Shown piece by piece: positions 1,852-61,770 of a stretch of 64,000 bases of DNA. The position numbers and the translations under genes were made by a program. The DNA is from Oscillospiraceae bacterium (GTDB taxonomy: Bacteria > Bacillota > Clostridia > Oscillospirales > UBA929): contig JAISCT010000064.1 in the NCBI GenBank assembly GCA_031265355.1, positions 1,254-65,253 of the forward strand, read 5' to 3'. A model generated the notes under the pieces. That model had not been told where the DNA came from, did not search any database, and was given only the letters and a program-made list of their open reading frames with translations. Position 1 is the first letter of the stretch, and the number at the start of each line of letters is the position of its first letter.

Positions 1852-1880
1852 TTGACGCAGTGTTGAAAAAGGGGTATGAT
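1852..1880 (+). promoter_or_regulatory. Sigma-70-type promoter for the larE-like gene
   Basis: TTGACG (1852-1857), 17-nt spacer, TATGAT (1875-1880). RBS GGGAGGG lies 7 nt before the ATG at 1923. Confidence 0.5.
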
Positions 1881-1922
1881 ATAACAAACTTGCCGCGACG
1901 GGCACTTTGGGAGGGTCGCCGG

Positions 1923-2944: not shown

Positions 2945-3018
2945 TTTTTGGCCCCGCCTGTGCTATACTGTCCTCATAAGCCGTCCCCACCGCTCTTCGC
3001 GAAGGAGTGTGACCCACA

Positions 3019-11321: not shown

Positions 11322-11349
11322 GCCGAATTTTGTCCGCGGCGGCGGGTTC

Positions 11350-12489: not shown

Positions 12490-12532
12490 CGTCAGTCTCC
12501 TCATGCCGCCGCGCTGGCGCGGCGGGTCCGTC

Positions 12533-19704: not shown

Positions 19705-19864
19705 CCGGTGTCCCCGGGTCGGAATCGACTTCCGACAGACCTTCGACGTGACCCTGAAAATGAGAACGCAAACACGTACGTACATCGAGGCCCGCATCGT
19801 CAGCGGCGCGGTCACGCTCACCGCGGACGCCAGCGTCTTTCTGGGCCGTATCCGCGTCCACTGA
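19703..19864 (+). other. +1-frame open tail following the collagen-like ORF (possible displaced C-terminal domain)
   Basis: Frame +1 is open from ~19612. It reads ...[47 protein letters not shown] and stops at 19862-19864, 21 nt before the terminator stem. Confidence 0.45.
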
Positions 19865-19885
19865 AGACCTCCCTTTCACTTAAAA

Positions 19886-19970: not shown

Positions 19971-20033
19971 ACTGTATTGATTTAAATGCCGGATCCATCC
20001 GGGGCACCGGGGTCTTGGGGGGAGGTTCTCGAT

Positions 20034-27599: not shown

Positions 27600-28657
27600 C
27601 GGACGCCGGTTTGACCGAGGCGCTGCTCACGTGGTACGAGACCGCACGGCGGACGCTGCCATTTCGGAATATAAAGGATCCCTATTACATTTGGTTATCA
27701 GAAATCATGGCGCAGCAGACCCGGATCACGGCGCTGCTCCCTTATTTCACAGCGTTTGTGGCCCGTTTCCCCACAGTGGCCGATCTGGCCGCCGCCGATG
27801 AGCATGACGTGCTCAAGGCGTGGGAAGGGCTTGGCTATTACAGCCGCGCGCGCAACCTGCGCCGCGCAGCTCTTTGCATCATGAGCGAACACGGAGGCCA
27901 GGTGCCAGACGAGCCGGACGCGCTCCGGCGGCTGCCCGGCATCGGCGATTACACGGCGGGGGCCATCCTATCCATCGCCTTCGGACAAAAGGCGCCCGCC
28001 GTCGACGGCAATGTCCTGCGTGTACACGCCCGGATCCAATGCGACGACACCGACGTAACGACACCGGAGGCCCGGACGCGGGCGCGGGTGTGGGTGTTGT
28101 CGCTTATGCCGGACGACAGACCGGGGGATATGACGCAGGCGCTCATGGAACTCGGCGCTTTGCGTTGTCTGCCGGCCGCGCCGCGTTGCGGCGAGTGTCC
28201 GGCGGTATCGTTTTGCGGCGCACACCGGGCCGGGCGGACGCGCGCGCTGCCGGTGAAGTCTCCAAAGAAACCGCAGCGCGTCGAAAAGCGCTCGGTCTAT
28301 CTGTTGCTAGACCCGGAGGGCCGTGTATTGATGCGCCGGCGCACCGAGGCGCTGCTGCACGGGCTTTGGGAGTTCCCCTCTGCGCCCGTAGCGGGGGTAC
28401 CCCTGCTGTCTGACGAATCCTGCGGCCGGGCGGAACACGTCTTCACGCACATCCGCTGGCAGATGGAAGGCCATCTCTGCCGCACCCCAGCCACCTCGGC
28501 TCCGGAGAGCCACCTCTGGGCCGCTCCGGAGGACTTCGCCACCCTGGCGCTGCCCACCGCATTCCGCGCGTTCGTAAAAACCCTGCATGCCGTTTGGAAA
28601 CAGCGATACTCTGAACCAAGTCCTGAAAGGGAGGGTCAAAAGGATGCTGGGATTTAA
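27596..28657 (+). CDS. mutY: A/G-specific adenine DNA glycosylase MutY
   Basis: HhH-GPD region (LPGIGDYTAGAILS), an Fe-S cluster (C-x6-C-x2-C-x5-C: CLPAAPRCGECPAVSFC) and a C-terminal NUDIX-like domain. Confidence 0.9.
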   Translation: MTDAGLTEALLTWYETARRTLPFRNIKDPYYIWLSEIMAQQTRITALLPYFTAFVARFPTVADLAAADEHDVLKAWEGLGYYSRARNLRRAALCIMSEHGGQVPDEPDALRRLPGIGDYTAGAILSIAFGQKAPAVDGNVLRVHARIQCDDTDVTTPEARTRARVWVLSLMPDDRPGDMTQALMELGALRCLPAAPRCGECPAVSFCGAHRAGRTRALPVKSPKKPQRVEKRSVYLLLDPEGRVLMRRRTEALLHGLWEFPSAPVAGVPLLSDESCGRAEHVFTHIRWQMEGHLCRTPATSAPESHLWAAPEDFATLALPTAFRAFVKTLHAVWKQRYSEPSPEREGQKDAGI

Positions 28658-30341
28658 AAAGCCAAGCAGAATCATCATCAGCGCCGCCGCCGTGTTTGTC
28701 GCGGCGCTGACAGTAGGGTTGGCGGTAAATAGGACCACAGACAACGACTCAGCCATAACCGCCGAAAGCGACGAGCGGCATCTGGATACATCTTACGACG
28801 TTCACGGCGGAACTTTGCCCGACACGACTGTTACCCCTGTGTTCTCAACGCAGCAAGAGGCGGACGCATACGCCTTTCTCAGTGCCGTCGCGAAGGGCGA
28901 AGATCCGACCGGAGACGGAACCGCCGCCGAACTGCTGGGCAAAGCGTTTGATGGCAAAACGCCACATATAGAAAACATTCGCGTGCGTGAGAATGCAGAC
29001 AATCAGTTCCTTTGCGATATCAAACTCGACCGCATATATGAGCCATGGACAATTACACTGTTGCTTGATTATGAAAATGGCTCCGTACGTTACTACTGTT
29101 GGTACACGCGCTATTATGAGCAGGCGCAGAATGTGATTGCATACTATCTTGCCGCGCTCGAAAGCGGAGATGTTCAGAAAATCGCGGTGGCTTTAGCGCT
29201 GGATGGTCGTCCGGCAACGGATATGCTCAATGAAGCTGAAGCTGTACTTGATTTTTACCGACAGTACGATTTGAAAGAACTGAGGCTTGCCAGTTTTGAC
29301 TATGACGACGATATGACTCAGTTTGTATGTTTAGTGCAGAACCTGTACGGCGGCACTTTCGCGATTCGCCTGAATTGTATGGACGGTCTGGTCGGCCCCG
29401 ACATTTGGGAGGCTACACACGCGTTCAAGCCGGAGGACATTCGCGACTTGGTATCCGCAAAGCTATATCTTACACAGGGAACGACCGTAACTCTCGACGA
29501 TATGTCAACGTTACATGCACTCGAAAAACTTCTCAGTCAGAATGCGAACGAGGAAACGTTCCCGACAAAGTGTCCGTTCTATTGCCGGCTGGAATTGACC
29601 TGTACGGACGGCACAGCAGGGATAATCTACCCGGCCCTTGACAGCTGCGGCGTGTTCAAATCCGGCAGCCATTATTACAACTATGGCAACAGCAAAGCCA
29701 ATGCGGATTTTTGGGCGATTTTTGGTGGAAATCCGTCTCTGTTGGCGCACAGATACGGTGAAGTCAACAACAAACCTCATCTCACTATAGCCGACGTTCG
29801 TAGACTGGCGGAAGAGAGCGAAGAATCCATTTTTCAACAACTGTCAGATTATTACAGCGATCATATCATCAATCTATATGACGAGCGTGTTAGGCAATGG
29901 ACATATCCAATAGAAGGTGAAAAATGGCAGCTCGATGTGTTTGTCAGCGATGTCAACAACACGGAAACGCTGTCAATATACCTCACTCCGATTGGCTTTT
30001 TATTTCAGCCGCAGGGGGGGGTCGCATTTGAGAAAGGCGGCGTCGATGCGTATATCGACTTCGTGGAAAGCTATGTTCTGGCCGTGCTTACAGATGAGGA
30101 AATTGTTTCCGCCCAAGACATCGCGTTTGCCCATTGGTCACGCTTGTTTGCCGGAAAGTTCACGAAGGACGATATGCACTACATGGCACATATCGACGGA
30201 CAGTTCGCGAACGCGGTCATCGTCAGCAGAGTTAAGGGCAAACTCGCTGTGTTCGCGGTCCATATCGACGGCATGCAGCGGCACATCATTCTCACGCAAG
30301 CGGAAAACGGCGCGTGGGAAGTCATAAATGAGGGCATTTAG
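28644..30341 (+). CDS. Orphan membrane-anchored protein, low G+C
   Basis: ATG 28644 follows RBS GGGAGGG. It has an N-terminal TM anchor (IIISAAAVFVAALTVGLAV) and a 530-aa ectodomain with no motif I recognise. Sampled 60-nt lines are 40-45% GC versus ~66% in the flanks. Confidence 0.6.
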   Translation: MLGFKKPSRIIISAAAVFVAALTVGLAVNRTTDNDSAITAESDERHLDTSYDVHGGTLPDTTVTPVFSTQQEADAYAFLSAVAKGEDPTGDGTAAELLGKAFDGKTPHIENIRVRENADNQFLCDIKLDRIYEPWTITLLLDYENGSVRYYCWYTRYYEQAQNVIAYYLAALESGDVQKIAVALALDGRPATDMLNEAEAVLDFYRQYDLKELRLASFDYDDDMTQFVCLVQNLYGGTFAIRLNCMDGLVGPDIWEATHAFKPEDIRDLVSAKLYLTQGTTVTLDDMSTLHALEKLLSQNANEETFPTKCPFYCRLELTCTDGTAGIIYPALDSCGVFKSGSHYYNYGNSKANADFWAIFGGNPSLLAHRYGEVNNKPHLTIADVRRLAEESEESIFQQLSDYYSDHIINLYDERVRQWTYPIEGEKWQLDVFVSDVNNTETLSIYLTPIGFLFQPQGGVAFEKGGVDAYIDFVESYVLAVLTDEEIVSAQDIAFAHWSRLFAGKFTKDDMHYMAHIDGQFANAVIVSRVKGKLAVFAVHIDGMQRHIILTQAENGAWEVINEGI

Positions 30342-45150: not shown

Positions 45151-45623
45151 ATCGTTCCGTCAGCCTCCTCCTGCAAGAGCGCCGCTTTGCTGATATACCG
45201 CGCCAGCACCGCGGCGAGCAGCGCGAGCGAGATGCCGAAGATGCAGCCAAGCAAGGACAAAAACAGGATGCCGGGACGGTTCAGTCCGGCCAAAAGCAGC
45301 GCGAAGCCGCCGACCGCGAAGAATCCGACGTCGGCCAGCAGTATCGTGGCGGCAGTCTTTATCCACTTTGCCGTTTTTTGTGTGAATACCTCGTCGCGCT
45401 GTATGGCGTTGGAGACCTTCCACACATAGACCAAAATGACGAAACATGGCGCGGAAGCCGCCCACAGGTAGACAAGCCAGATGTACCCCCCACCCAAACC
45501 GGGATTCCACCCGATGAGGTCGGACAGCCTGAACGGATACACATAGCAGCACAGCGCCAATCCGCAGACAGCCGTCGCAATCGCAGCGAAACGCACGAAG
45601 GCACACAAGGTCTTGGAACTCAT
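45147..45623 (-). CDS. DUF2975-like four-TM membrane protein
   Basis: Typical DUF2975-XRE gene pair. ATG 45623 follows RBS GGGAGAGGTGG and lies downstream of the mapped promoter. The track start 45671 would lie upstream of the -10. Confidence 0.6.
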   Translation of the reverse strand: MSSKTLCAFVRFAAIATAVCGLALCCYVYPFRLSDLIGWNPGLGGGYIWLVYLWAASAPCFVILVYVWKVSNAIQRDEVFTQKTAKWIKTAATILLADVGFFAVGGFALLLAGLNRPGILFLSLLGCIFGISLALLAAVLARYISKAALLQEEADGTI

Positions 45624-45654
45624 ACAGGCCACCTCTCCCTGCATAATTTTCCCC

Positions 45655-45683
45655 ATTGTAGCACAGGCCAATCATAATGTCAA
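45655..45683 (-). promoter_or_regulatory. Near-consensus promoter of the DUF2975-XRE-rSAM operon
   Basis: On the minus strand, TTGACA (comp. 45678-45683), 17-nt spacer, TACAAT (comp. 45655-45660). Confidence 0.6.
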
Positions 45684-48840: not shown

Positions 48841-49704
48841 TTATTTTACAATTTCATCGAGAAAGTGCCGCCGCCGGGCAGCCATCAGGGTATTGCGCAG
48901 CAGCATGACGCGCGTCATCGGGCCCACACCGCCGGGTACCGGCGTGATGTGGGAAGCCTTGGCCGCCACCTCGTCGAAACACACATCGCCCACAAGCCGG
49001 CCGTCCACGCCCCGGTTCATCGCCACGTCGATGACGACGGCCCCCTCCTTCACCATATCGCCGGTGATAAGCCCCGCCTTGCCAACGGCGGCCACCAGGA
49101 TGTCGGCCCGCCGCGTGACGTCGGCCAAATCCCTGGTGCGGGAGTGGCAGAGGGTCACGGTCCCATGGCGGTGCAGCAGGAGCATGGCCTGGGGTTTTCC
49201 GACGATGTTCGAGCGCCCGACCACCACGCAGGACCGACCCTGCACCTCGATGCCGTAGGCGTCGAGCAGCGCCATGACGCCCGCCGGCGTGCAAGGCACA
49301 AAGTCAAAGTCACCGATCATGATGCGCCCCACATTGTAGGGGTGGAAAGCGTCCACATCTTTGGCCGGATCGATGGACAACAGCACCGTCTTCTCGTCCA
49401 AATGCGCCGGCAGCGGAAGCTGCACCAAAATGCCATGGATGTCCGCGCGCCGGTTCAGGGTTTGGATGAGCGCCAGCAGTTCCTCCTGCGCACAGTCGCC
49501 CGGCAGTGCGTACTCCTCCGACAGGAGGCCGCAGTGGGCGCAGTCTTTCTTTTTGTTGTTGACATAGACCCGGGACGCGGGATCGTCCCCCACAATGACG
49601 ACCGCGAGCCCCGGCGTGACCCCGCGTGCGGCCAGCGCGCGCACTTCCTGCGCAATCTCCGCTTTGTTCCGGGCCGCCACGGCCCTGCCGTCGATCAGTG
49701 TCAC
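48841..49704 (-). CDS. folD: Bifunctional methylene-THF dehydrogenase / methenyl-THF cyclohydrolase
   Basis: LIDG...[18 protein letters not shown] and [20 protein letters not shown] motifs. The GTG start overlaps the lgt stop (GTGA). Confidence 0.95.
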
Positions 49705-50798
49705 AGCGTCTCCTCCTCCGGCGCCGGTCTCGGCTCCGCTTCCGTCTCTTTGGCCTCTTCGGCTTTCTCCGTGGTCTCGCCGGCGTCATCCGACGGCCCG
49801 CTCTCCGCGCTCTCCACGGCCGCTTCAAGCACAGCCGCCTCGGCCTCCGGCCCGACCACATTGAGCGTGACTTCCTCGGCCTCCTCGATCTCCGGCGCCG
49901 GCTCGGCCCCGGCCGCGGCCCCGGGCTCCGCTCCCTCACTCAGGGGCGCCAGCGTGGCCGGGTCGTGCGTACGGAAACGCCAATTGTAGATGAGCAGCGC
50001 CACGGCCGCCGCGCAGGAAACAAACCCCAACACCTGCGAGATGCGCAGAGAGGTGTTAAAGAAATATAGGCTGTCGGTCCGCAGCCCCTCGATCAGGCCG
50101 CGGCCCAGGCCATACCAAGCCACATACATGAGAAAGACCTGGCCGGTGAACTTCCGTCTCGTGAGCACCCTATGTAACAGGAGGAAACCCAGCAGCGTCC
50201 ACAGTGATTCGTACAAAAACGTCGGATGCACCGTGATCCGGTTGTTGATGATCTCGTCGCCGATACGATTTACAAATACTTCCATTCCCCAGGGCAAATT
50301 CGTTCGCGTACCGTGCGCCTCTCGGTTGATGAAGTTGCCCCAACGCCCGATGCACTGGCCGATGAGGAGACCGAGGGCCGCCACGTCCATCAGCGCGGAA
50401 AACCGCAGTTTTTTCACGCGGCAAAAGATATACGCCGTCAGCACTGCGCCGATGATCGCGCCGTAGATGGCGATACCGCCCTTCCAGATCTCGTAGATCT
50501 TCTGCGGGTACGGGTTTTTGACCGGGTCGTAGACGAATTCCCGGAAGTTAAACACGACGTAATAGAGGCGCGAAAAGATGATCGCCACCGGCACGGCGAA
50601 GAGCAGCGCATCGATGAAATCGTCCTGCCGGATCCCCACGCGGGGGGCGCGGCGCACCGTGTAGTAGGCCGCCAGCAGGAAACTCGCCGCGATGATGATG
50701 CCGTACCAGTAGATGCCGCGGCCAAAGATCGTGAATGCGACGGGGCTCGGATCGAACTGAAGCCCCAGCCCGGGGAAAACAATGGGGTTGTCTGTCAT
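49701..50798 (-). CDS. lgt: Prolipoprotein diacylglyceryl transferase with an acidic ~85-aa C-terminal tail
   Basis: IYWYGIIIA and [13 protein letters not shown] motifs. The tail is rich in E, A and P. Confidence 0.9.
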
Positions 50799-50857: not shown

Positions 50858-52162
50858 TCAACTTTCTTCTTCATGCGCCGGTTCGCCGCGGGCCACTCCC
50901 GGCGTGACGACGGACAGGGCGGCACGCGCCGGGACAAACGCCTCGCACAAAAACGCGTACGCCGCTTCCGGTGTCAGCGTGTCGAACAGGGCGAGCACAT
51001 CGAAATACCGTGCGTGCGCGAAGTGGGCGTCCGCTTGCAGGCGGCACAGCGCTTCCGGCGCATCCATCTGGCGCAGCCGGGCACCCAGCGCCGCGCGTTT
51101 CAGCCGCTCAAACCGCACCGTGTCCATCCTGTCCCTCCCGAGTCTCGCCACCTCGTCGAAGAGCGCCTCACGCACGGCAGTCGGCTCCGGGCTCTCGCCC
51201 ACGGCAACCAGGCACGCGCCCTCGGGCACGCGGAAAAGGCCGTACCCGTAATCGCGGTTGATAAGCCCCCTCTCGTAGAGCGTCTTGTACAACGGCGACG
51301 CCGGACCGGTGAGTGCTTCCATCGCGAGCTCCCCCAGCAATTCGAAACGCAGCGTCTCGGTCCCCGGCGCGGGCGGCGCGCACAGCGCGCCCAAGGCAAA
51401 AAGCGGCCGGGCGACCTCCATGGCCCGTGAGACACTGCCGCGCGCGGCCTTTTGACACAGCGCGCCGTAATCGCGCGTGAGGACGGGCCCCCGCGCCGCC
51501 GGCCACACCGCGCCGGCGACGGCCTCCACCCGCGGCGGATCCACATCTCCGGCTACGCAGAGGCACATGTGCGCGGAGCGGTAGAAGGCCGCGTGGCAGT
51601 CGTGGAGCATATCGGCGTCGATCCCGGCGATGGACGCTGCCGTCCCGGCGATCGGCAAGCGGACCGGATGCGCGTCGTAGAGGGCCGTCAGCAGATTCTC
51701 GTACACCTGGCTGTGCGGGTTGTCCTCCATCATGCGAATTTCCTGTCCGATGATACCCTGCTCCTTGTCCACGCTCTCCTTTGTAAAATACGGTGTGGAC
51801 ACAAAGCGCAGCAGGGTGCGCAGATTCTCTTCAAAACGATCGGTGCAGGCGAAGTAATAGGCCGTCATGGCGTGACTCGTGAACGCGTTGGACGACGCAC
51901 CGGTCCGGGCAAACGCCTGCAACGCGTTTTCGCCGTCCGGCATGTCAAACATCTTGTGCTCCAGAAAATGCGCCACCCCCGCCGGGGTGTCCCGCCAGGC
52001 CCCGTCCGCGGCGAAACGGACGTCCACCGACCCGTAGTTCACGGCCAGTATCGCATAGGTCTTGCGGTACCCCGGTTTGGGGACGACAAAGATCGGCAGG
52101 CCGCCGGGCCCCTCGCCGCAGATCAGCGTCTCCCGCACATTCGGAAAGTCGATCCTATTCAT
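50858..52162 (-). CDS. M16 (pitrilysin) family zinc peptidase, active subunit
   Basis: HFLEH (HxxEH) zinc motif. ATG 52162 overlaps the upstream gene's end. Confidence 0.8.
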   Translation of the reverse strand: MNRIDFPNVRETLICGEGPGGLPIFVVPKPGYRKTYAILAVNYGSVDVRFAADGAWRDTPAGVAHFLEHKMFDMPDGENALQAFARTGASSNAFTSHAMTAYYFACTDRFEENLRTLLRFVSTPYFTKESVDKEQGIIGQEIRMMEDNPHSQVYENLLTALYDAHPVRLPIAGTAASIAGIDADMLHDCHAAFYRSAHMCLCVAGDVDPPRVEAVAGAVWPAARGPVLTRDYGALCQKAARGSVSRAMEVARPLFALGALCAPPAPGTETLRFELLGELAMEALTGPASPLYKTLYERGLINRDYGYGLFRVPEGACLVAVGESPEPTAVREALFDEVARLGRDRMDTVRFERLKRAALGARLRQMDAPEALCRLQADAHFAHARYFDVLALFDTLTPEAAYAFLCEAFVPARAALSVVTPGVARGEPAHEEES

Positions 52163-53435
52163 CTGTCTCCTCCCCCCGCAGGAAATATACCGTATCCCAG
52201 GCGCCGCCTGCCGCCGCGGCCGCAACCTCCGACCGGCCGACATCGCGCAGTCGTTCGGCCAACGCGTCCGGGCTCTCCGTGCGACCGGCCGCCGCCTGCC
52301 CCAAAAAGTGATCTTCCAACCGGTCCGGCCAATCCGCAGCGGCGCGCAGCCGGTGGATCAGCGAAAGCCGGGCGGCCTCCAGCTCCTCGTCGGAGATCTC
52401 ACCCTCCGCCACAGCCGTCCACTGGCGCAGGATCTCCGCCTGCGCAGCCGCGCGATTTTTCGCTTCGATGCCCGACGATACCACAAGGATCCCCTTGTGG
52501 CCCTTCAGTTCGGCGGAGGCGTAATAGGCCAGCGACAGCCGCTCCCGCACACCGAGGAAGAGTTTGGATGTGGTCGTCCCCCCGTACACCGCCGCAGCCA
52601 GCAAGGCCGCCGGGTATTGTTCATCCCCCGCGGCCACGCCGAGGCGCATGCCCAAAATCAGCGTGCCTTGCGTTACATCCATGCTCTCTTCGTAAGTCCT
52701 GCACGACGCGGCGGTGCGCACGACGCGCGTGTCCGCTCCGTCAAAGAACGCGGCCCGCGGCAGCGCATCCAATACGCCGCGCCAGATGTCGGCCGCCTCG
52801 TCCGGCGGGCGCGACCCGGCATAAAAAAGCGCAACCTGAGACCGGGCCAGCACCGCCCGGTAATGCGCCCACAGCGCCGCCGGCTCGATCGCCTCCACCA
52901 CATGGGCCTCACCCAGTTCATGGGCGCCGTACGCCTCCTCGGCACACATATGCGCCAACATCCGGCGAACGGCGTAGGTCGGTTTGTGGTTTCGCTCGGC
53001 CCGGAGCCGGTCGGCCAGCACCGCGCGCTCCCCGGTCACATACGCGGGCAGGAAGGCGCCATCCCCGGCCGGATCTAACAGAACCTCTCCCATCAGCGCC
53101 GCCATGTCGCGCAACTGGTCGGGCCGACCCGGCAGATACGCGCCGTCCACAAAACCGGCCGTCAGACCGACGCACTGCACCTCGCCCTTTTTGCGCACGG
53201 CCGGCTTCAGCCGGGCGCCGTACAGCGTCTCCAGCCGGGCAGCCAGGCGCGTCATATCCGGGTGTCTCCGGCTCCCTCGGCACAGCACTTGGGGCAGCAG
53301 AGCCGACAGCCCCGCTTCCCTGCGCGACAGCGGTCGCAGCAGCGACAGCGAGAGCACGCCGGTTTTGAATTGCTCTGTCTGCAGCGCCGTGAGTGTCACC
53401 CCGGGCCGCACGGTCAGTCGGACAACCTCGGCCAT
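52155..53435 (-). CDS. M16 family peptidase-like protein, non-catalytic partner
   Basis: M16-like length and sequence, but I saw no HxxEH motif. ATG 53435 follows GGGGAG. Confidence 0.7.
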   Translation of the reverse strand: MAEVVRLTVRPGVTLTALQTEQFKTGVLSLSLLRPLSRREAGLSALLPQVLCRGSRRHPDMTRLAARLETLYGARLKPAVRKKGEVQCVGLTAGFVDGAYLPGRPDQLRDMAALMGEVLLDPAGDGAFLPAYVTGERAVLADRLRAERNHKPTYAVRRMLAHMCAEEAYGAHELGEAHVVEAIEPAALWAHYRAVLARSQVALFYAGSRPPDEAADIWRGVLDALPRAAFFDGADTRVVRTAASCRTYEESMDVTQGTLILGMRLGVAAGDEQYPAALLAAAVYGGTTTSKLFLGVRERLSLAYYASAELKGHKGILVVSSGIEAKNRAAAQAEILRQWTAVAEGEISDEELEAARLSLIHRLRAAADWPDRLEDHFLGQAAAGRTESPDALAERLRDVGRSEVAAAAAGGAWDTVYFLRGEETDE

Positions 53436-53516: not shown

Positions 53517-56500
53517 CTACACCTGCCCGGGAAATGGAATACTTTTTCCACCCGATTCCTCCGCGCGGGCCTTCGCATCCGCCTCTTCGCCGATCTTCCA
53601 CCTTTTCCCGCCGGCAAGAACCGCACCCGCGCGCCAGTCGGCGGGCCGGCGGGGTCGGATGGCAACAGGCGCTCCGTCCCGCCATTGTACGCCGAGGAGA
53701 TGTTCCACAGCCACGCGGTAATACCAAGCGGCGGCGCCCGTGTAGGCGCTCCAACCGCCCCGGCCGGCGTGCGCCTCGTTGTCATATACATCGGCGGCCA
53801 GCACATGCGGTTCCACGCGGTACACGGCCAGATCATGCGTCTCCGGCAGCAGGAGGCGCAGGAGTTCCCAGCCCCGCTCCGTCTGCCCGTCCAGCAGAAA
53901 CCCCATGGCCAGCCATACGGCGGCGTGGGTATACTGTCCGCCGTTTTCCCGCACGCCGGGTACATAGCCCTTGATATAGCCCGGGTCAGGCCCGTCGGAC
54001 CCAAAGGGCGGCGTCAGCAGGCGTACGATGCCCTTCTCTCGGTCGACCAGCCGCGACCAGGCGCTTTGCAGTGCCGTGCGCCGTCGGGCCGTCTCTGCGT
54101 CTGTGGAGCCGGGGACCAGCAGCGCAAAACTCTGGGCAACCGAGTCGATTTGACAGGCCCCGCCTCCGGCGGCGCCCAACGGGGCACCGTCGTCGTAGTA
54201 ACCGCGCCGATACCAGGCCCCGTCCCAGGCCGCTTCCGCCGCCTCCGCCAGCGACGCGGCCGCGTGTCTCTGGCGCGCGGCCGCGGCCGCGTCGCCCCGA
54301 CTCTCACACAGCGCCGAGAGCCTCGTCAACGTGTGGACGGCAAACCATGTCAGCCACACGCTCTCGCCCCGCCCGCCCGCGCCCACGCGGTTGAAACCGT
54401 CGTTCCAGTCGCCGCCGCCCATCAGCAGTAAGCCGTGTGCGCCCGTGCCCCGCGCGAGCACCTGGTCGGCCGCTCGCAGGCAGTGCGCGTACACGGGCTC
54501 CCTGTGGAGCGAGATCGCGGGCGTCTCATAGCGTTCATGCTCTCCTTTTGCCAGCGGCGGCGACGAGAGATAGGGTACCGGCTGGTCAAGCAGAGCGCCG
54601 TCTCCGGTCTTCTCCACATATTCGCACACCGCATAGGGCAGCCACAGGAGATCGTCGCTGCACCGGGTCCGTACGCCCTTCTCACCCAGGCCGGACCGCC
54701 GTACGGCCGGATGCCACCAGTGCTGCACGTCACCCTCCACAAACTGGTGGGCACAGGCGCGCAGGATCTGCCGCCTCGCCGCAGCCGGATCTCCGTAGAC
54801 AAGCGCACACACGTCCTGAAGCTGATCGCGAAAGCCGAAGGCGCCGCCGCACTGATACAGCGAGGTACGGGCGTGCAACCTCACGGCCTGCACCTGATAG
54901 AGCGCCCAACCGTTCAAATAGCGATTCAGCGCCGCGTCCGGCGTCTCCGTTCGGATAGGACACACCCGCGCGCGCCACCAAGCCACTGTCTCCGCGCGCG
55001 CCCGCGCGGCCTCGGCTTCGTCGGCGAGCGCCCGGAGCAACTGCAGCCCAGGTTCGTTGCACGCACAGCCGCACACCAATACGAGCGTCGGCGCGCCGGT
55101 GCGCCAGGGGATCTCGCAGGAAAACGCACCCGGTCGCTCTTTCACCGCCTCCAGCGGCGCGGACGCCAGGATGGCATAGGTCTGCGGGTTATACGCCGCG
55201 CGGTAGTACGACCGGGCCGTGACCATCCCGTCTGCCTGTTTTAGCAAAATCTGATTTTGCGCCGCGTCGTCCGGCCCCATTCTGAGTGCGCTCTCGTAAT
55301 GCAGTCCGGTGCCGGCTGTATCCTTCCCCTCCACACGTACCGTGAGCACCCGGGCCATCCGGTGCGGCGGCACGAAGGCCTCTGTGATCACCTGCGCTGT
55401 GCCGGCCGTCTTCTCCCATCGGGCATACCCGAAACCGTAGGTGACCGTCACCGGGCATCCGTCGCCGTCCGCAAACAGCGACACCAACCGCCCCCTCAGC
55501 CGAACGGCGATCCGTTCGCCGCCGCGCACGGCCAGCGGGTCGTTTATCCACGGTGTCAGTTGGTTCTCCCGAGCGTTGCGCCGCCAGAGGTAACCCGTTC
55601 CGGCGTCGGTCACCAGCGCGCCAAAGGCAGGGTTTGCCAGCACGTGGCTCCAGGCGCAGGGCGGCAGACCCCGCGCCGTGTCGAACTGGAAGGCACCATC
55701 CGGCAACCAGCGGCGCGATGGCGCGGCGATCTCCGGCGGCGCGCAGGACAGCGTCACGGCGATCTCCGGCGGCGCGCAGGGCAGCGTCACGGCGGCGGCT
55801 TCCCCGCAGATCCGGCGCGCCACGGCGCGCAACAGCCGCGTCTCCTCTGGCGTGCAGGCGCCCCTGTCGATCAGATGCACGCCACCCCGCGCCCCCAACG
55901 CGTTCTCCGCGCCGATATGCTTCAGCGTCTCCATCACCAAGTTGCGCGTCGGTCCGCGGTAGTCGGCGCCATCTCCCGTCAGTATGGCGAGATCGCAGGC
56001 CGTCCCGCACAAGGACAGCATCCGATGTTGGCGGATGAGTCGCCCCAGCCGCTCGGCAGGCGTCGCCTCCGGGTCCGTGCACAGGAGCAGCGGCAGGTCC
56101 CCCGAGAGGCCGAATTTCCACAGTTCGCTTTGATCCAGGCGGTTCTGCCGGGCGGCGCCGGGGTCCACACCCGGCCCAAACAGCAGTCCGCTCAGCATGT
56201 CGAAAGCCTCCAGTGCTTCGGCACCCGTCAGTCCGAGCCGCCGCAGCAAGCCTGGCAGGCCTCCGGGCTTTTCCGCCGGGGCGGATAGGCCTGCCAAACG
56301 GGCCGCCGCCGCCACCGCGTCCCGTTCCGTGTCCGCCACCGTGAGCGCGAAACGCACGACGGCCGTCTCTCCGGGCCCAAGCGACAGCGGCACGCGGGCC
56401 AGAACGCAGGGATCCAGCACAGTCCCTCGGCTATGCCCCGGCGGTCGGCGTACCGCACCGTCCAACGCCGCGGCCCCGCCGCGGCCCAACGCTCGCTCGC

Positions 56501-59500
56501 GCGAAGTGTCGTAGGTCACGCCCGGGTGGTCGCAGGTGAACGCCAACCAGGCCTCACCGCCGCCGCCGCGCGGCCGGCGGCGCACCGTGACTGTCTGCAC
56601 ATCGATATATGTCTCCAAAAACAATTTGGAAAACGCCGGGTGGGCGTCGTAGTCCGCCTGCACGGCCAGCACGGGTTCCCAGTAACACGCCAGCGTGAGC
56701 GTTTGGCTCGCCTTGGCGGTGTTTTTCACTGTGGCGGCGCGCCATTCCCCCACCTCGTCGCCGGGTACTCGCGCCTCCCATTGCACGTCCCACCCGTCTG
56801 TTCGAATCCACCACCGCGCGTGGGTCGCGTCGAAGACATATCCGCTCTCCGGCGCCTCGCCGGAGCCAGCAGGCAGGCCGAGGACGCGCCGGCCGTCATC
56901 CAGCCGGAGCACCAGGCCGGACGCGCCGAGGTCCCGGCCCTGCGGATCGAAGCGCGTAAGCTGCCGACCAGCCCCACGGGACGATGTCGCCCCTGTTCCC
57001 ATACAAAGCAGCGTGTAGGAACCGTTGGCAAGCAGATGGCAGACAGACGCTCCTCCGATGGCGCCGGTGCGGTGCCAGTCCTCTGGTGCGGCGCGGGTCG
57101 GCTTTTCGGGCACCTCCCGCCCAAACGGACGCACCGACACGGCGCCGACCGGCACCTTCTCTTGAAGAAGTTCGGCAAAGGCGCCCATCTCCGGATCGCG
57201 CATGAAGCGCCGCTGCATCACCTGGGTGCGCAACGCATTGTCCACGGCCAGCAGACTCATCCCCAAATGGTGCGACATAAAACAGCGCACGATTTCGAAG
57301 GCCCCCCGCCCCGTTCGGCGGGCCGGTGTGAAATCAATCGCCTCAAACAGTCCGTATCGCCCCTCCATCCCCAGCGCGCGCAAGGCACGCAGGTTCCGCA
57401 TCGCCGCCTGCGGCTGGGCGAGCAGCGCTAGGTAGGACGCATAGGGCGACACCACGTATTCCCCGCCCAGCCCTCGCTTGAACGCCAGTCTCGGCACGCC
57501 GTGAGCCTTGTAGCGATACTGCAGCGCGCTGTCGAAGGCGTAAAAGCAGCTCTCTGAAACACCCCAAGGCACACCCCAACCGCGGCCCTGCTTGCGGTGG
57601 CAGTAAACGCAAAAACGGGCGCTCTCAAACAGCAGCGAGTTTTCAAAACAGGGCATCAGCAGGTGCGGCATCAGGTATTCGAACATCGTACCCGTCCAAG
57701 AAGCCATACCGCGATAGCGGTCGTCCATGACCAGCGCCCGCCCCAGCCGCCGCCAGTGCCGCCGCTCTACCTCTCCCCGGGCAATGGCAAGATAACTTGT
57801 CTGCCGCGCCTCCGAGGCCAGCAGGTCGTAATGACTTTCGGAGAGCTGCCCCGTCTCCGCATCCAGCCCAATGGCAAACAGACGCCGCCGGGCATCGTAG
57901 AGCGGCTGAAAGTGCATGGCCCGGGCGAGTTTGTCTGCGCGCGCGGCCAGGTCCCCCGCCGCCGCGTCGCGTAGCTCACCTAACCCTTCCCGCAGCGCGA
58001 TCAGACAGCAGGCGAGGTTGCCTGAGTCCACGGTGGAGACATACCGGGGACGCAGGATCGCCAATGTGCGGGTATCGATCCAGTTGTAGAGATGCCCGTG
58101 CCACTTCGGCAGCTCCTCCAGCGTCGTCAACATCCGCTCGATCAGCCGCAACGCACGTTCAGCGCCCGCGAGGCCGAGGTCGAGGGCGGCCAGCACACAG
58201 AGCAGACCGAGCCCGATGTTCGTGGGCGAGGTGCGGTGCGCGAGCCCGGCGGCCGGCTGTTCCTGCCAGTTGTCCGGCGGCAGGTAATGGTCCTCCGGCG
58301 TGAGGAAGTCCTCAAAATACTGCCAGATGAGCGCCGCCTGCCGCATCAGAAACGCTCGGTCCGCCCCCGGCAGCCGGCGGGGACAGCGGCGGGGCCGTCC
58401 GGTGAGGGAGAGCACCACCGGCGAGAACACCCAGAGGAGGCCCACCACCCAACCGGCGGACGAAAGCAGTGTACACAGCGTTCCCCAGACGACGGCGAAG
58501 CCCATCTTCCGCCCATCGCGCAGAAAGCCGCTGACCGCCGACCGTTCCGACTCGGCGGCCGTCACCCAGCGCAGCAGGCGCCTCCGGCTGACGTGCACTC
58601 GATACAGCGCCGTCGCCGCCGCCTGCAGATAGACGAAGGCCGTATGGGGCAGCAGCAGGAGTTCGAGGCCACATTGCAGCGCAGCGGCGGCCACGCCTGT
58701 GATGATGTCGGAGTGATATCGGATCCGTCCGCCGCCGCGTACAGCCCGCTCAGCAGCCGAAAGCAACAGGCGCGAGGCCGCGCACAGCACGGCCAGCCCT
58801 CCGACGATCCACAAGGGACGGGCGGGCGCGGCAAACCCCAGCGTCAGCGCGAGGAGCAGACACGCGGGCGAGAGGCTACGGCGCAAATTGTCCAATATTT
58901 TCCATTTCGAGAGGATTCCCAACGGATTGCGGCTCCGTCCGCCGGCGCCGTCCCGCACGCGGCGACCGAGCCAGCCGGCGATCTGCCAATCCCCGCGCGT
59001 CCAGCGGTGCAGACGGTCAAACCAAGCTCCCACCCGCGTGGGGCAGCCGTCCGTCAGCTCCACATCCCCAAGCAGCCCCGCGCGCAGGTAGCAACCCTCC
59101 AACAGATCGTGGGAGAGGATCAGATTTTCGGGAAAACGCCCGTCCAGACAGGTAAGATAGGCATCCACGTCGAAGATCCCTTTACCAAGAAAGAGGCCGC
59201 GGCCGAAGAGATCCTGGTAGACGTCGGACGAGGCGCCGCCGTACGGGTCGATGCCCCCCTGCCCGGCGAAGACCCGCGTGAAGAGCGTCCGCCCCGCCGC
59301 CTCAAGATCCACGGCAAGCCGCGGCTGCAGGACCGCGTGGCCTGCGGTCACCACCCGACGCGCCGAGTCGATCTGCGGCGCCGTCAGCGGGTGCAGCATG
59401 GCTCCAACCATCTCGCGCGCCGCGCCGGCGGTCAGCCGGGTGTCGGCATCCAGCGTGATGACATAGCGGATCTTCCGTAGCGGCGCTACATCGCCCGTCG

Positions 59501-60944
59501 CCGTGCGCAGGCCCGTCGGGCGGCCGCGCAGCAGGCGCATCAGCTCCAGCAGCGCGCCGCGCTTCCGCTCCCAACCCATGTACATTCCGTCTCGGACGTG
59601 GAACTGGCGATCGCGCAGAAAGAGATAGAAGCCTCCGTCGTACCTCCGATTGAGCGCAAAGATCGCCTCCTGCGCCGTCCGGAGGACCGACCTGTCCCCA
59701 GGCCGCCGTTTCGCCGGCGCATCCGGCAGATCGGCCAACAGACCAAACAGAAGCCTCTCGCCCGCGTCTCGGTTTGCAAGTTTGTAATTTTCCAGCAGTT
59801 TGCACATCTGCCGAGCCCGTCCGCTGTCGGTCAGCAGCACCGAGATTACACACAGCGCGGATCCATGCGCCGGGAGCCCATGGGCCAGCTCCAGCCTGGG
59901 GATGCGGCGGGGCGAAACCAGGCGCGTCGCCGCGAAATCCACTACCGACTTCACAAGATCCGAGATCGGGAGCAGCAGCAACGCCGCGGCCCACAGCGTG
60001 CCGGACAGCGTGCCCGCCAGCGCCGTCAGCGCCGCTGTGAGAGCAAAGAAAGCTCCGAAATACAGCATCCCGGCCGGTCGGCGACGCCGGCGTCCCAGCG
60101 GCTGCTCCCAGATGTAGTAACCCACATGGCGGCGCCGGCCGGCCGGCGCGCGGCGCGCCAATTTTAGCACGGCCTCGGCGGCCTGCTGTTCGGAGAGGCG
60201 CGCGCGGCGCGCCAAACGGGCGAGCGCCCGGCGGTATTCGGCGCGTGACGATTCATCCATCGCTCCGTATACCTCCGCCGGATCTCGGCGGAGCAGCGCC
60301 TCGATGGTGCTGGCTTCCTGCAGACATTCGGTCAAATCGTCGTTGGCCAGCATCCGCAGTGAGGTAACCGCCTGACCGGTCCACGTACGCAGACGCGCGT
60401 CCGCAGTCGCCGCACGCGCCGGGTCGGCCGCGGACGCGCGCAGCATCTCGTCGCACAGCTCGGCCACGGACTCGACCAGCGCCGCCTTGAGCAGCGGAAC
60501 AAAGAGCCACAGCTCTTTTTCCGAGAGCGGCCACACCGTTTGCGCGCCCGCGAGGTAGCACCCGACCCGCGCCCGGGTGACAATGTTTTGTCCCGCACGC
60601 ACCAAACCGGCCGCGAGCGTGTACACCGCCGGCAGCCCGGTCCGCCGGTCTGCCGGGAACCGCCCGGCGCGCTGCAGTGCCAGCATGGCCTCCCGCGCGG
60701 CGCGCTCCACGAGATAGCGGTTGTCCAACAGCCACTCGACCGCCTGCGGTATGTGTGGCTGCCCGGTCGAAAGGGCTGACAGTTTCAGCGCCGCCGCCCG
60801 AATCGTCCGGAGCTGCCGCCCGAGCCGCCCGGCCAGCCGCGCGCCGCGCGCCGCGCCTTTGCGCTGCAGCGTGCGCGCCGTGTTTTTGGCGTATTGCCCG
60901 AGCCTCGCCTCCTCCACCTGGATCCCCACATCTCCGGCCGACAT
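53517..60944 (-). CDS. Cyclic beta-1,2-glucan synthase-like giant protein (GT84 + linker + GH94 phosphorylase-like; Cgs/ChvB/NdvB family)
   Basis: Multi-TM N-terminal half with IRYVITLDADTRL, SDVYQDLFGRGLFLGKGIFDVDAY and ILSHDLLEGCYLRAG. The C-terminal half has RDQLQDV...FVEGDVQHWWHP. ATG 60944 follows RBS GGAGGTGGG; the track start is 61010. Confidence 0.8.
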   Translation of the reverse strand: MSAGDVGIQVEEARLGQYAKNTARTLQRKGAARGARLAGRLGRQLRTIRAAALKLSALSTGQPHIPQAVEWLLDNRYLVERAAREAMLALQRAGRFPADRRTGLPAVYTLAAGLVRAGQNIVTRARVGCYLAGAQTVWPLSEKELWLFVPLLKAALVESVAELCDEMLRASAADPARAATADARLRTWTGQAVTSLRMLANDDLTECLQEASTIEALLRRDPAEVYGAMDESSRAEYRRALARLARRARLSEQQAAEAVLKLARRAPAGRRRHVGYYIWEQPLGRRRRRPAGMLYFGAFFALTAALTALAGTLSGTLWAAALLLLPISDLVKSVVDFAATRLVSPRRIPRLELAHGLPAHGSALCVISVLLTDSGRARQMCKLLENYKLANRDAGERLLFGLLADLPDAPAKRRPGDRSVLRTAQEAIFALNRRYDGGFYLFLRDRQFHVRDGMYMGWERKRGALLELMRLLRGRPTGLRTATGDVAPLRKIRYVITLDADTRLTAGAAREMVGAMLHPLTAPQIDSARRVVTAGHAVLQPRLAVDLEAAGRTLFTRVFAGQGGIDPYGGASSDVYQDLFGRGLFLGKGIFDVDAYLTCLDGRFPENLILSHDLLEGCYLRAGLLGDVELTDGCPTRVGAWFDRLHRWTRGDWQIAGWLGRRVRDGAGGRSRNPLGILSKWKILDNLRRSLSPACLLLALTLGFAAPARPLWIVGGLAVLCAASRLLLSAAERAVRGGGRIRYHSDIITGVAAAALQCGLELLLLPHTAFVYLQAAATALYRVHVSRRRLLRWVTAAESERSAVSGFLRDGRKMGFAVVWGTLCTLLSSAGWVVGLLWVFSPVVLSLTGRPRRCPRRLPGADRAFLMRQAALIWQYFEDFLTPEDHYLPPDNWQEQPAAGLAHRTSPTNIGLGLLCVLAALDLGLAGAERALRLIERMLTTLEELPKWHGHLYNWIDTRTLAILRPRYVSTVDSGNLACCLIALREGLGELRDAAAGDLAARADKLARAMHFQPLYDARRRLFAIGLDAETGQLSESHYDLLASEARQTSYLAIARGEVERRHWRRLGRALVMDDRYRGMASWTGTMFEYLMPHLLMPCFENSLLFESARFCVYCHRKQGRGWGVPWGVSESCFYAFDSALQYRYKAHGVPRLAFKRGLGGEYVVSPYASYLALLAQPQAAMRNLRALRALGMEGRYGLFEAIDFTPARRTGRGAFEIVRCFMSHHLGMSLLAVDNALRTQVMQRRFMRDPEMGAFAELLQEKVPVGAVSVRPFGREVPEKPTRAAPEDWHRTGAIGGASVCHLLANGSYTLLCMGTGATSSRGAGRQLTRFDPQGRDLGASGLVLRLDDGRRVLGLPAGSGEAPESGYVFDATHARWWIRTDGWDVQWEARVPGDEVGEWRAATVKNTAKASQTLTLACYWEPVLAVQADYDAHPAFSKLFLETYIDVQTVTVRRRPRGGGGEAWLAFTCDHPGVTYDTSRERALGRGGAAALDGAVRRPPGHSRGTVLDPCVLARVPLSLGPGETAVVRFALTVADTERDAVAAAARLAGLSAPAEKPGGLPGLLRRLGLTGAEALEAFDMLSGLLFGPGVDPGAARQNRLDQSELWKFGLSGDLPLLLCTDPEATPAERLGRLIRQHRMLSLCGTACDLAILTGDGADYRGPTRNLVMETLKHIGAENALGARGGVHLIDRGACTPEETRLLRAVARRICGEAAAVTLPCAPPEIAVTLSCAPPEIAAPSRRWLPDGAFQFDTARGLPPCAWSHVLANPAFGALVTDAGTGYLWRRNARENQLTPWINDPLAVRGGERIAVRLRGRLVSLFADGDGCPVTVTYGFGYARWEKTAGTAQVITEAFVPPHRMARVLTVRVEGKDTAGTGLHYESALRMGPDDAAQNQILLKQADGMVTARSYYRAAYNPQTYAILASAPLEAVKERPGAFSCEIPWRTGAPTLVLVCGCACNEPGLQLLRALADEAEAARARAETVAWWRARVCPIRTETPDAALNRYLNGWALYQVQAVRLHARTSLYQCGGAFGFRDQLQDVCALVYGDPAAARRQILRACAHQFVEGDVQHWWHPAVRRSGLGEKGVRTRCSDDLLWLPYAVCEYVEKTGDGALLDQPVPYLSSPPLAKGEHERYETPAISLHREPVYAHCLRAADQVLARGTGAHGLLLMGGGDWNDGFNRVGAGGRGESVWLTWFAVHTLTRLSALCESRGDAAAAARQRHAAASLAEAAEAAWDGAWYRRGYYDDGAPLGAAGGGACQIDSVAQSFALLVPGSTDAETARRRTALQSAWSRLVDREKGIVRLLTPPFGSDGPDPGYIKGYVPGVRENGGQYTHAAVWLAMGFLLDGQTERGWELLRLLLPETHDLAVYRVEPHVLAADVYDNEAHAGRGGWSAYTGAAAWYYRVAVEHLLGVQWRDGAPVAIRPRRPADWRAGAVLAGGKRWKIGEEADAKARAEESGGKSIPFPGQV
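55726..55791 (-). repeat. 33-bp x2 in-frame tandem duplication inside the glucan-synthase-like gene
   Basis: Units 55726-55758 and 55759-55791 differ at one base. They encode VTLPCAPPEIA and VTLSCAPPEIA. Confidence 0.85.
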
Positions 60945-61134
60945 AAACGACACCCACCTCCGACGTTTTTCGTGCGCCGGCGCCGCGCGCCGGTCGCTTT
61001 GCCCTAGCATGGCCCACCGACGGGGCGGCTATACCGGCGCGCTTCGCCTTGTCTTATCTTGTCTTGACAAGACAAAATTGGAGCGCGCATAATGGAGATA
61101 CAGGCAGAGGAATGTCAAAGAGAGGGGGAGCCTC

Positions 61135-61770
61135 ATGACACTGTTCGAGAGAGCCGACCACATCGTGCGCGCCCTGGAAACGCGCTATCCGGACGCCACC
61201 TGCGCGCTCACCTACGAAAAGGACTATGAACTGCTGTTTTCCGTACGGCTGGCCGCCCAGTGTACGGACGCACGGGTAAACATCGTCACGCAGACGCTGT
61301 TTCGCACCTATCCGACGCTTCAGTCCTTCGCCGAGGCAGATCTGCCCGCGCTGGAAGAAGCCGTGCGGCCGTGCGGATTTTTTCGCCTCAAGGCCCGAGA
61401 CATCCGCGCGTCGGCCCGTATGCTGCTGGAGGCATTCGACGGGTGCGTGCCGGACACCATGGAGAATCTGCTGCGCCTGCCCGGCGTGGGGCGCAAAACC
61501 GCCAATCTCATCTTGGGCGACGTATACGACAAGGGCGGCATCGTGGTGGATACGCATTGCATGCGTATCGCAAACCTCCTGGGTCTCTGCCACGAGAAAG
61601 ACCCACACAAGGTCGAGCGAGCACTCGATCCGCTGATCCCGAAGGAGGCGCAGTCGGCCTTCTGTCATCGGCTGGTGTGGCACGGGCGGGATACCTGCAT
61701 CGCGCGGCGGCCCCGCTGCGGCAACTGTGTGCTGCAAGCGCACTGCGATTTTTTCCATCGTAGCGCGTGA
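61135..61770 (+). CDS. nth: Endonuclease III
   Basis: HhH-GPD motif LPGVGRKTANLILG, the catalytic D, and a C-terminal Fe-S cluster C-x6-C-x2-C-x5-C (CIARRPRCGNCVLQAHC). Confidence 0.9.
   Translation: MTLFERADHIVRALETRYPDATCALTYEKDYELLFSVRLAAQCTDARVNIVTQTLFRTYPTLQSFAEADLPALEEAVRPCGFFRLKARDIRASARMLLEAFDGCVPDTMENLLRLPGVGRKTANLILGDVYDKGGIVVDTHCMRIANLLGLCHEKDPHKVERALDPLIPKEAQSAFCHRLVWHGRDTCIARRPRCGNCVLQAHCDFFHRSA

Follow-up and report, generated by a model that had tools for sequence, protein, structure and literature searches.

A compact homologue of Cgs-type synthases of cyclic beta-1,2-glucan in an Oscillospiraceae genome

The cgs reading frame and its domain architecture

The DNA analysed here is a 64,000-nucleotide stretch from an Oscillospiraceae bacterium (assembly GCA_031265355.1, contig JAISCT010000064.1, positions 1,254 to 65,253), referred to below as the window. 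Its reverse strand carries one very long gene, cgs, whose product resembles the synthases of cyclic beta-1,2-glucan known as Cgs, ChvB or NdvB. An earlier note on the same DNA, made from the sequence alone, had described a single giant open reading frame (ORF) of about 2475 amino acids at 53517-60944, and this description holds; the ORF is intact and, as judged from its sequence, far beyond chance, with a third-position GC of 0.80 and codon-position GC values of 0.72/0.54/0.80 that are typical of real genes in the window. Taken from its first ATG, the ORF would span 53517..61010 (-) and encode 2497 amino acids. The start at 60944 appears the better of the two, because a Shine-Dalgarno-like GGAGGTGGG lies 8 nt upstream of it, because both this element and the ATG are kept in an orthologue with 86% identity (locus L003), because 67 nt inserted in L003 between the upstream ATG and the preferred start would break the upstream frame, and because a separate gene prediction for a public contig of identical sequence likewise yields a product of 2475 amino acids. 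The upstream ATG was rejected as the start on account of that frame-breaking insertion. Coordinates of all features are collected in Table 1.

Comparison with the L003 orthologue gave a dN/dS of 0.17 for the whole protein and 0.07 for the cyclase domain, the most constrained part of the protein; cgs is therefore under purifying selection and not a relic. That the protein is an inactive relic or scaffold, in which glucan synthesis has been lost, might be argued from the fact that the gene is known here from sequence alone; this is scarcely credible for a 7.4-kb ORF that is intact, in which every catalytic residue tested is conserved, which evolves at a dN/dS of 0.17 and which belongs to a gene conserved in hundreds of species. 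Cgs is thus apparently a genuine and functional homologue. In a linker between domains, an in-frame 33-nt tandem duplication gives rise to two copies of VTL(P/S)CAPPEIA; as the 86%-identical orthologue does not have it, it is a recent, lineage-specific event.

Three Pfam families were found in the expected order along the protein: PF10091 ('glycoamylase', GH144-like; residues 1038-1250, 2e-14), PF06165 (GH94 supersandwich; 1.4e-46) and PF17167 (GH94 catalytic domain; 8.2e-89, profile positions 1-420 of 420). An NCBIfam search of the 2475-residue protein gave no match. The earlier note had assigned blocks in the N-terminal half of the protein to GT84 and a C-terminal block to GH94; the domain search bore out the GH94 part directly, and the GT84 part, for which Pfam and NCBIfam hold no model, was judged, and upheld, by alignment to the solved Cgs of Agrobacterium tumefaciens. 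The cryo-EM structures of that enzyme (8RF0 and 8RF9) were the best sequence matches in the PDB (1174 bits, phmmer), with stretches that are colinear, in order, and cover query residues 64-2441; they were followed by 8WY1, the crystallised cyclization domain of the Thermoanaerobacter italicus enzyme, and then by GH94 phosphorylases at about 1e-39. The peptide blocks quoted in the earlier note (IRYVITLDADTRL, SDVYQDLFGRGLFLGKGIFDVDAY, ILSHDLLEGCYLRAG, TSPTNIGLGLLCVLAALDLG and RDQLQDV...FVEGDVQHWWHP) are all present in the translation, and its identification of the protein as a Cgs/ChvB/NdvB-type homologue agrees with the full-length colinearity and with the retained GT84, GH189 and GH94 residues.

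In the N-terminal domain, query residues 64-170 align to A. tumefaciens residues 85-195, and residues 187 onward to 283 onward; the map of insertions and deletions indicates that the domain is about 100 amino acids shorter than that of an Agrobacterium plasmid-borne homologue. The first hydrophobic hairpin aligns with a hydrophobic A. tumefaciens segment at about 395-460, and the second membrane region, made up of a hairpin at ~692-732, a connector of ~80 amino acids and a hairpin at ~816-849, is colinear with A. tumefaciens 778-985 without large insertions or deletions. The hydropathy profile holds three hydrophobic hairpins (~291-335, ~692-732 and ~816-849) that are colinear with the transmembrane regions of the A. 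tumefaciens enzyme, a pattern consistent with six transmembrane helices and with catalytic domains located in the cytoplasm.

Residue-wise alignment placed D405, D499/D501 (TLDADT), Y568 (GIDPY), D613 (SHDLLEG) and R647-W648 of the GT84 domain opposite D527, D624/D626, Y694, D739 and R773 of the A. tumefaciens enzyme, among which D527/D624 (UDP binding), D626, D739 (catalytic base), R773 (RW motif) and Y694 (the glucan-primer tyrosine) have been given roles (PMC10901819). The position of the priming tyrosine, which lies in the IF1-homology loop, is kept as Tyr568, and its glucosylation is predicted. In the GH189-type domain the corresponding residues are S970/D973, E1045 (acid/base), E1089, E1131 (nucleophile) and H1225/H1226; T. 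italicus E1356, E1400, E1442 and H1536/H1537 are all kept, as are A. tumefaciens S1101/D1104 and E1300. In T. italicus E1356 is the acid/base and E1442 the nucleophile, with E1400 and H1536/H1537 in supporting roles (PMC10834661), and D1104 and E1300 belong to the A. tumefaciens cyclase (PMC10901819). D2040 (GFRDQLQD) and the catalytic acid D2182 (GGDWNDG) of the GH94 domain align to the phosphorylase residues D2393 and D2528 (PMC10901819). For the region between the two Pfam-recognised parts of GH94, the relevant phmmer stretches are query residues 998-1698, aligned to A. tumefaciens 1253-1977, and 1761-1858, aligned to 2070-2172; the Rossmann-fold-like insert of that enzyme comprises residues 1847-2012 (PMC10901819). 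The catalytic residues of GT84, GH189 and GH94 are invariant in an alignment of Oscillospirales sequences with two Rhizobiaceae (alphaproteobacterial) homologues (alignment A1), and those of the cyclase are invariant in 41 Clostridia sequences (alignment A2).

A cyclase domain without the four-helix motif

What had been described as a central alpha-helical region corresponds to the GH189 cyclization domain. The region matches 8WY1 with an E-value of 5.9e-122 in the PDB sequence search and 4.8e-125 in the alignment, and an AlphaFold model of residues 860-1300 (pLDDT 86.4, pTM 0.88) has 8WY1 as its best structural match (TMq 0.89, TMt 0.68), followed by A. tumefaciens Cgs and then by beta-1,2-glucanases. 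The TMt value is the lower of the two because 8WY1 has 160 additional residues.

Those residues form a four-helix motif which is not present in the query, according to the alignments to the T. italicus and A. tumefaciens enzymes; within about 2 residues, the query jumps from T. italicus chain residue 146 to 305, and from A. tumefaciens residue 1135 to 1253. The missing insertion amounts to ~120-160 amino acids and would sit after query residue ~995, and the VDSGN-LLASE spacing is accordingly 72 amino acids in the query, compared with ~180-290 in long forms. In the A. tumefaciens enzyme the motif protrudes outward, outside the active site, and makes a back-to-back dimer contact (PMC10901819); in T. 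italicus these 'additional alpha-helices', between alpha4 and alpha5, were described as unique to CGSs (PMC10834661). As the dimer motif is missing, the enzyme is probably monomeric or uses a different interface, and the superposition of the model on 8WY1 indicates a barrel that is intact without the insertion.

Absence of the motif is a property of the clade; every examined member of the Oscillospirales clade to which the query belongs lacks it. In a tree of 80 homologues (neighbour-joining, Kimura distances, midpoint-rooted, without bootstrap), which supports clade membership and not fine branching order, a few Gemmatimonadaceae, one gammaproteobacterial metagenome-assembled genome (MAG) and one Bacillales MAG likewise have no such motif, and these absences, on the sequences compared, are independent losses. 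The sequence score of the query to GH189 exceeds that to any SGL-type endo-beta-1,2-glucanase by 110 orders of magnitude. The four-helix motif is regarded here as a variable peripheral feature and not as family-defining, because it is peripheral, because it varies within the Cgs tree, because the GH189 score lies far above the SGL score, and because CAZy families are defined by sequence. The published statement that the helices are conserved within GH189 (PMC12102758) is in need of qualification.

The missing insertion also bears on the main alternative, namely that the protein is a beta-1,2-glucan synthase whose main product is linear glucan, oligosaccharides or rings of a different size, the compact cyclase serving chiefly as a disproportionating transglycosylase. 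Both characterised enzymes possess the insertion of ~120-160 residues, the loss of which may affect ring closure or chain-length selection; TiCGSCy, the T. italicus cyclase domain, also carries out intermolecular transglycosylation (PMC10834661), and the product of the clade is predicted from homology. We nevertheless consider this alternative unlikely; it is weakened by the peripheral position of the motif, which in Agrobacterium protrudes as a dimer contact outside the active site (PMC10901819), by the invariance of all GH189 catalytic and pKa-tuning residues, and by the constraint on the cyclase, which at a dN/dS of 0.07 is the strongest in the protein, and the predicted barrel superposes on 8WY1 with a TMq of 0.89. 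One modest new point, structural in kind, is this large clade of complete Cgs proteins without the helical insertion; it could help to define a minimal cyclase and could serve enzyme engineering.

Relatives and genomic neighbourhood of cgs

Of 8000 candidates scored in a protein search, more than 3200 proved to be relatives at E<=1e-10. The best 120 all have lengths of 2357-2595 amino acids and share the Pfam architecture of the query; those among them that are named to a taxon are Oscillospiraceae or Clostridia, several already bear the name 'cyclic beta-1,2-glucan synthetase' (as does that of Papillibacter cinnamivorans DSM 12816), and one cluster of relatives, with 361 members, is Intestinimonas butyriciproducens. 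When one genome was scanned for each species, relatives proved to be encoded on at least 598 stretches, the hosts among the matches listed comprising many Clostridia, Clostridium methylpentosum DSM 5476, Paenibacillus, Bacillus, Pelotomaculum and diverse diderm phyla. The founding member of the GH189 family is itself the enzyme of a Firmicute, T. italicus (PMC10834661), and Acetivibrio clariflavus Clocl_3028 has been listed as GT84-GH94-GH189 (PMC12037645). The earlier note had implied that such a gene would be rare in Firmicutes, which is wrong: cgs homologues are common and already annotated in Clostridia, a cyclase domain from a Firmicute has been characterised by biochemistry (PMC10834661, PMC12037645), and the gene is not unusual for a Firmicute.

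The closest database relative, with 86% identity, is an Oscillospiraceae MAG protein (P0001). Placement relative to proteobacterial Cgs, which had been proposed as a check, put the query inside a deep, exclusively Clostridia-type compact clade, apart from diderm sequences and from Proteobacteria. That cgs was acquired recently from a Proteobacterium by horizontal transfer, or is an assembly chimera, might be read into the GC content of the gene (0.67-0.69), which is slightly above the window mean of ~0.63, and into the fact that Cgs is best known from Alphaproteobacteria. The segment at 46-48 kb that bears fhs is, however, equally GC-rich (0.69); the nearest relatives are Oscillospiraceae and Clostridia at 44-86% identity, against 36% for Rhizobiaceae; the compact form is common to the deep Clostridia clade in which the query lies; the gene order from cgs through two M16 genes and lgt to folD is conserved across that clade; and an identical cgs with the same neighbours is found on an independent assembly. 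Tree, conserved synteny and unremarkable composition therefore argue against recent transfer, which was rejected on these grounds; an origin by either route is exceedingly improbable. Binning had assigned some contigs with cgs homologues to the archaeon Methanothrix, to Bacteroidaceae and to Bacteroidia (L051, L026 and L027). The L026 homologue clusters within the Oscillospirales clade and has the M16/lgt synteny, and its contig is probably mis-binned; the Methanothrix-binned homologue groups with diderm bacterial sequences.

On the strand of cgs, 81 nt separate its stop codon from the first of two M16 genes, and no terminator-like site was detected in this gap; lgt follows the M16 pair, and beyond lgt lie folD, fhs and an iPGM-like gene. 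The order of cgs, inactive-type M16-like gene, M16 peptidase gene and lgt recurs in 11 other loci (L003, L004, L008, L011-L014, L020, L021, L024 and L026), down to 34% Cgs identity and often with folD next in line; in L006 cgs is followed directly by lgt. The suggestion that cgs is transcribed alone is thus not supported, since the short gap without a terminator and the conserved order make co-transcription with the M16 pair and lgt plausible. The linkage may reflect functional coupling, for example in envelope or lipoprotein maturation, or it may be core housekeeping synteny.

Upstream, nth is divergent from cgs, as the earlier note had it, and so is nrdD. In the intergenic region, a sigma-70-like candidate promoter of cgs stands back to back with one of nth; the consensus scan gave 3 sites against 0.7 expected. 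Also in this region is ATCTTGTCTTG-a-CAAGACAAAAT, a palindrome that is close to perfect; CTTGT repeats flank it, and its core is kept in L003. It overlaps the candidate nth promoter at the -35 box and lies just downstream of the candidate cgs promoter; from its sequence and position, it may be an operator.

The LCP, SLH, ecf and yqeK-nadD neighbours that had been named in the earlier note were all found in the window. The LCP pair and the SLH protein, together with the Oscillospiraceae affiliation, suggest a monoderm envelope, and the host is therefore probably a monoderm without a classical periplasm.

Further observations concern the rest of the window. A cobalamin riboswitch (RF00174; 34900-35171 (-), 51.8 bits against a gathering threshold of 31.5) lies directly upstream of the SLH gene, which suggests that the SLH protein is a B12-regulated, S-layer-anchored surface protein, possibly one that takes part in cobalamin capture. 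A radical-SAM and DUF4130 gene pair is located at 3013-5149, ~50 kb from cgs; in L005 a pair of the same type, at 15439-17561, stands immediately downstream of the cgs homologue. Adjoining the pair in the window, at 456-2732 (+), is a LuxC-type acyl-CoA reductase homologue followed by a gene with a weak match to PP-loop, an unusual pairing. No Pfam match was obtained for the ORFs at 28587-30341 (+; 584 amino acids), 19247-19879 (-; 210 amino acids) and 45160-45675 (-; 171 amino acids), the first of which lies in the part of the window with the lowest GC content (0.55 at 28-30 kb).

Table 1. Positions, within the window, of cgs, its predicted domains and the surrounding genes and candidate sites (TRF, Tandem Repeats Finder)
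Feature	Position	Strand	Basis or remark
cgs homologue	53517..60944	-	single intact ORF, 2475 amino acids
N-terminal cytoplasmic domain, residues 1-290	60075..60944	-	homologous to the Cgs N-terminal domain; alignment and map of insertions and deletions
First hydrophobic hairpin, residues ~291-335 (predicted transmembrane helices TM1-TM2)	59940..60074	-	Kyte-Doolittle peaks 1.7-1.8
GT84 glycosyltransferase domain, residues ~336-690	58875..59939	-	residue-wise alignment to A. tumefaciens Cgs
Second membrane region, residues ~691-849 (predicted TM3-TM6)	58398..58874	-	hydropathy profile
GH189-type cyclization (transglycosylase) domain, residues ~860-1267	57144..58367	-	alignment to 8WY1 and A. 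tumefaciens Cgs
GH94 N-terminal supersandwich domain (GP1), residues 1302-1534	56343..57041	-	PF06165
Region aligned to A. tumefaciens Rossmann-fold-like insert, second supersandwich and linker, residues ~1535-1900	55245..56342	-	
In-frame 33-nt tandem duplication in cgs linker	55724..55794	-	TRF score 135; 2.2 copies, 97% match
GH94 phosphorylase catalytic domain, residues 1989-2418	53691..54980	-	PF17167
Shine-Dalgarno-like element of cgs	60953..60961	-	8 nt 5' of cgs ATG; kept in L003
Palindrome (inverted repeat I1)	61056..61078		nth/cgs intergenic; near-perfect
Candidate cgs promoter, sigma-70-like	61089..61118	-	TTGACA, 18-nt spacer, CATTAT; consensus match only
nth	61135-61770		divergent from cgs
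M16-like protein, inactive-type domain only, 426 amino acids	52155..53435	-	PF05193; start from gene call on identical contig
Second M16 peptidase (Peptidase_M16 and M16_C)	50858..52243	-	Pfam
lgt, prolipoprotein diacylglyceryl transferase	49701..50798	-	PF01790, 9e-72
Two LCP genes	10077-12573		
HD/yqeK and nadD	12533-13767		
ecfA/ecfT	19986-21697		
SLH protein gene, ~1408 amino acids	30513-34760	-	SLH, Big_3 and DUF4430 domains

Proposed function and comparison with known synthases

Homology of the protein to Cgs/ChvB/NdvB-type synthases, in a Firmicute genome, is strongly supported by these alignments, and we put the probability that it is a Cgs-type synthase of cyclic beta-1,2-glucan, belonging to a compact sub-type typical of Oscillospirales, at roughly 0.8. 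Judged by its homology to Cgs of A. tumefaciens and TiCGS of T. italicus, the protein would be held in the cytoplasmic membrane by its three hydrophobic hairpins, or six transmembrane helices, with all catalytic domains in the cytoplasm. There the GT84 domain would use UDP-glucose to glucosylate Tyr568, in a self-priming step, and would then extend a beta-1,2-glucan on this primer by means of D405, D499/D501, the base D613 and R647-W648; the C-terminal GH94 domain (D2040, catalytic acid D2182) would trim the chain to length phosphorolytically; and the GH189 domain (nucleophile E1131, acid/base E1045) would, by retaining intramolecular transglycosylation, release a cyclic glucan of roughly 17-25 glucoses and regenerate the primer. 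The isolated cyclase domain of TiCGS, a Firmicute enzyme, makes cyclic beta-1,2-glucans with a degree of polymerisation of 17 and above in vitro (PMC10834661). For the query, we infer from such comparisons the product, its ring size, the topology of the protein and the fate of the glucan, be it a cytoplasmic osmolyte or exported by an unlinked transporter.

Several points weigh against this reading. The cyclase domain lacks the helical insertion that has been called 'conserved only within GH189' (PMC12102758), and the transmembrane topology comes from a hydropathy scan and not from a dedicated predictor. The literature searched yielded no characterised full-length Firmicute Cgs, no Oscillospiraceae glucan product and no report of a cyclic glucan isolated from a Firmicute, so that the glucan product of the protein is purely inferred. 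Finally, as the earlier note had observed, neither an exporter of the Cgt/ChvA/NdvA type nor a succinyl or phosphoglycerol modification gene is present among the ORFs scanned in the 64-kb window; ABC_membrane, Acyl_transf_3 and Sulfatase gave no match among these ORFs, and the sole ABC component is the ECF-type ATPase ecfA, with EcfT.

The missing exporter bears on the Cgs-Cgt/ChvA/NdvA system, in which a synthase is paired with its own ABC exporter and may be joined by Cgm/OpgC modification, and not on membership of the enzyme family. In 86 comparison loci, proteobacterial loci included, any ABC exporter was found near cgs in only 3 (flanks of ~6-10 kb, tblastn); with linkage missing in the other 83, the absence of an exporter near cgs says little. 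These figures refer to generic ABC-exporter similarity in tblastn and to Pfam ABC_membrane, and not to a verified Cgt or NdvA sequence; tblastn was used because a signature regular expression had missed known ABC exporters with a degenerate LSQGQ. A 729-residue ABC protein beside the Chelativorans homologue (L077) was set aside as an NdvA proxy, since it has a long N-terminal extension and was not taken as a bona fide NdvA or Cgt.

A role in catabolism or recycling, in which the GH94 and GH189 domains phosphorolyse or rearrange imported beta-1,2-glucans and GT84 is secondary, could be entertained because GH94 phosphorylases are reversible and because Gram-positives such as Listeria have dedicated beta-1,2-oligoglucan phosphorylases (PMC11842490). 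We hold it to be very improbable: the UDP-binding and catalytic motifs of GT84 and the priming tyrosine are invariant, the ORFs scanned in the window include no sugar ABC importer, beta-glucosidase or glucanase near cgs, the membrane-anchored multi-domain architecture is of the synthase type, and in Agrobacterium the catalytic acid of the phosphorylase domain is dispensable for function while the glycosyltransferase and cyclase are essential (PMC10901819). Little speaks for a catabolic role, for recent horizontal transfer or for gene decay, and a Cgs-type synthase remains the preferred reading.

Cyclic beta-1,2-glucans are classically periplasmic osmoprotectants, and host-interaction factors of Brucella, Agrobacterium and rhizobia. 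That the Cgs family is present in Firmicutes is already documented by CAZy-style annotation and by the T. italicus enzyme, the model of GH189. An intact synthase under strong constraint is widely distributed among Oscillospiraceae and other Clostridia, cultured gut species included. What its product is, where this goes and what it does in a monoderm cell are therefore real questions within reach of experiment, and they apply to the clade as a whole and not to this window in particular. It is possible, if doubtful, that a distinct, anciently vertical compact Cgs lineage, without the dimerisation motif and coupled in the genome to the M16 pair and lgt, exists in Oscillospirales, among them cultured butyrate producers of the human gut such as Intestinimonas and relatives of Flavonifractor and Lawsonibacter, and that in these single-membrane cells its cyclic beta-1,2-glucan either stays in the cytoplasm as a solute or passes to the wall or the medium. 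If this were true, cyclic glucans would have a physiological role outside the periplasm paradigm. The remaining interest thus lies in the biology of cyclic glucans in monoderm gut anaerobes, in the clade-wide compact cyclase and in the conserved M16/lgt linkage.

Among characterised systems, the query was compared with A. tumefaciens Cgs/ChvB (8RF0, 8RF9; PMC10901819), grouped with Brucella abortus Cgs and Sinorhizobium NdvB. Query and A. tumefaciens enzyme share the order of N-terminal domain, transmembrane hairpin, GT84, transmembrane region, cyclase and GH94 with an inserted Rossmann-like subdomain, and all mutationally validated residues (D527, D624, D626, Y694, D739, R773, D1104, E1300, D2393 and D2528). 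The query is, however, only ~36% identical to the A. tumefaciens enzyme and ~350 amino acids shorter than proteobacterial Cgs, lacking both the four-helix dimerisation motif of ~120 residues and ~100 residues of the N-terminal domain. Unlike A. tumefaciens, its host is probably a monoderm, Clostridia-class bacterium without a classical periplasm, and unlike in Agrobacterium and Sinorhizobium, the neighbours of cgs are the M16 pair and lgt, with no adjacent exporter of the chvA/ndvA type.

Within the Firmicutes, TiCGS (8WY1) is the closest solved relative of the middle domain, and has been studied as an isolated cyclase domain only (PMC10834661). It differs from the query by a 158-residue helical insertion between chain residues 146 and 305 and falls in the long-form group, whereas the query falls in the compact Oscillospirales clade. 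The homologues Clocl_3028, that of Papillibacter cinnamivorans DSM 12816 and that of Intestinimonas butyriciproducens (WP_368247324) have the architecture of the query in the same compact size, ~2400-2535 amino acids; they are 48-49% identical to it, come from different species, and are annotated but uncharacterised. In Intestinimonas the arrangement cgs-M16-M16-lgt-folD is the same as in the window.

The endo-beta-1,2-glucanases of GH144, GH162 and the new SGL groups (CpSGL, 5GZH; EeSGL1, 8XUJ) share the (alpha/alpha)6 barrel of the query (TMq 0.72-0.75) and, like it, are without the helical insertion. Their sequence match to the query is much weaker (1e-15, compared with 1e-125 for GH189), and they are inverting hydrolases, whereas the query keeps the retaining nucleophile and the histidine pair of GH189 in a barrel that is fused to GT84 and GH94.

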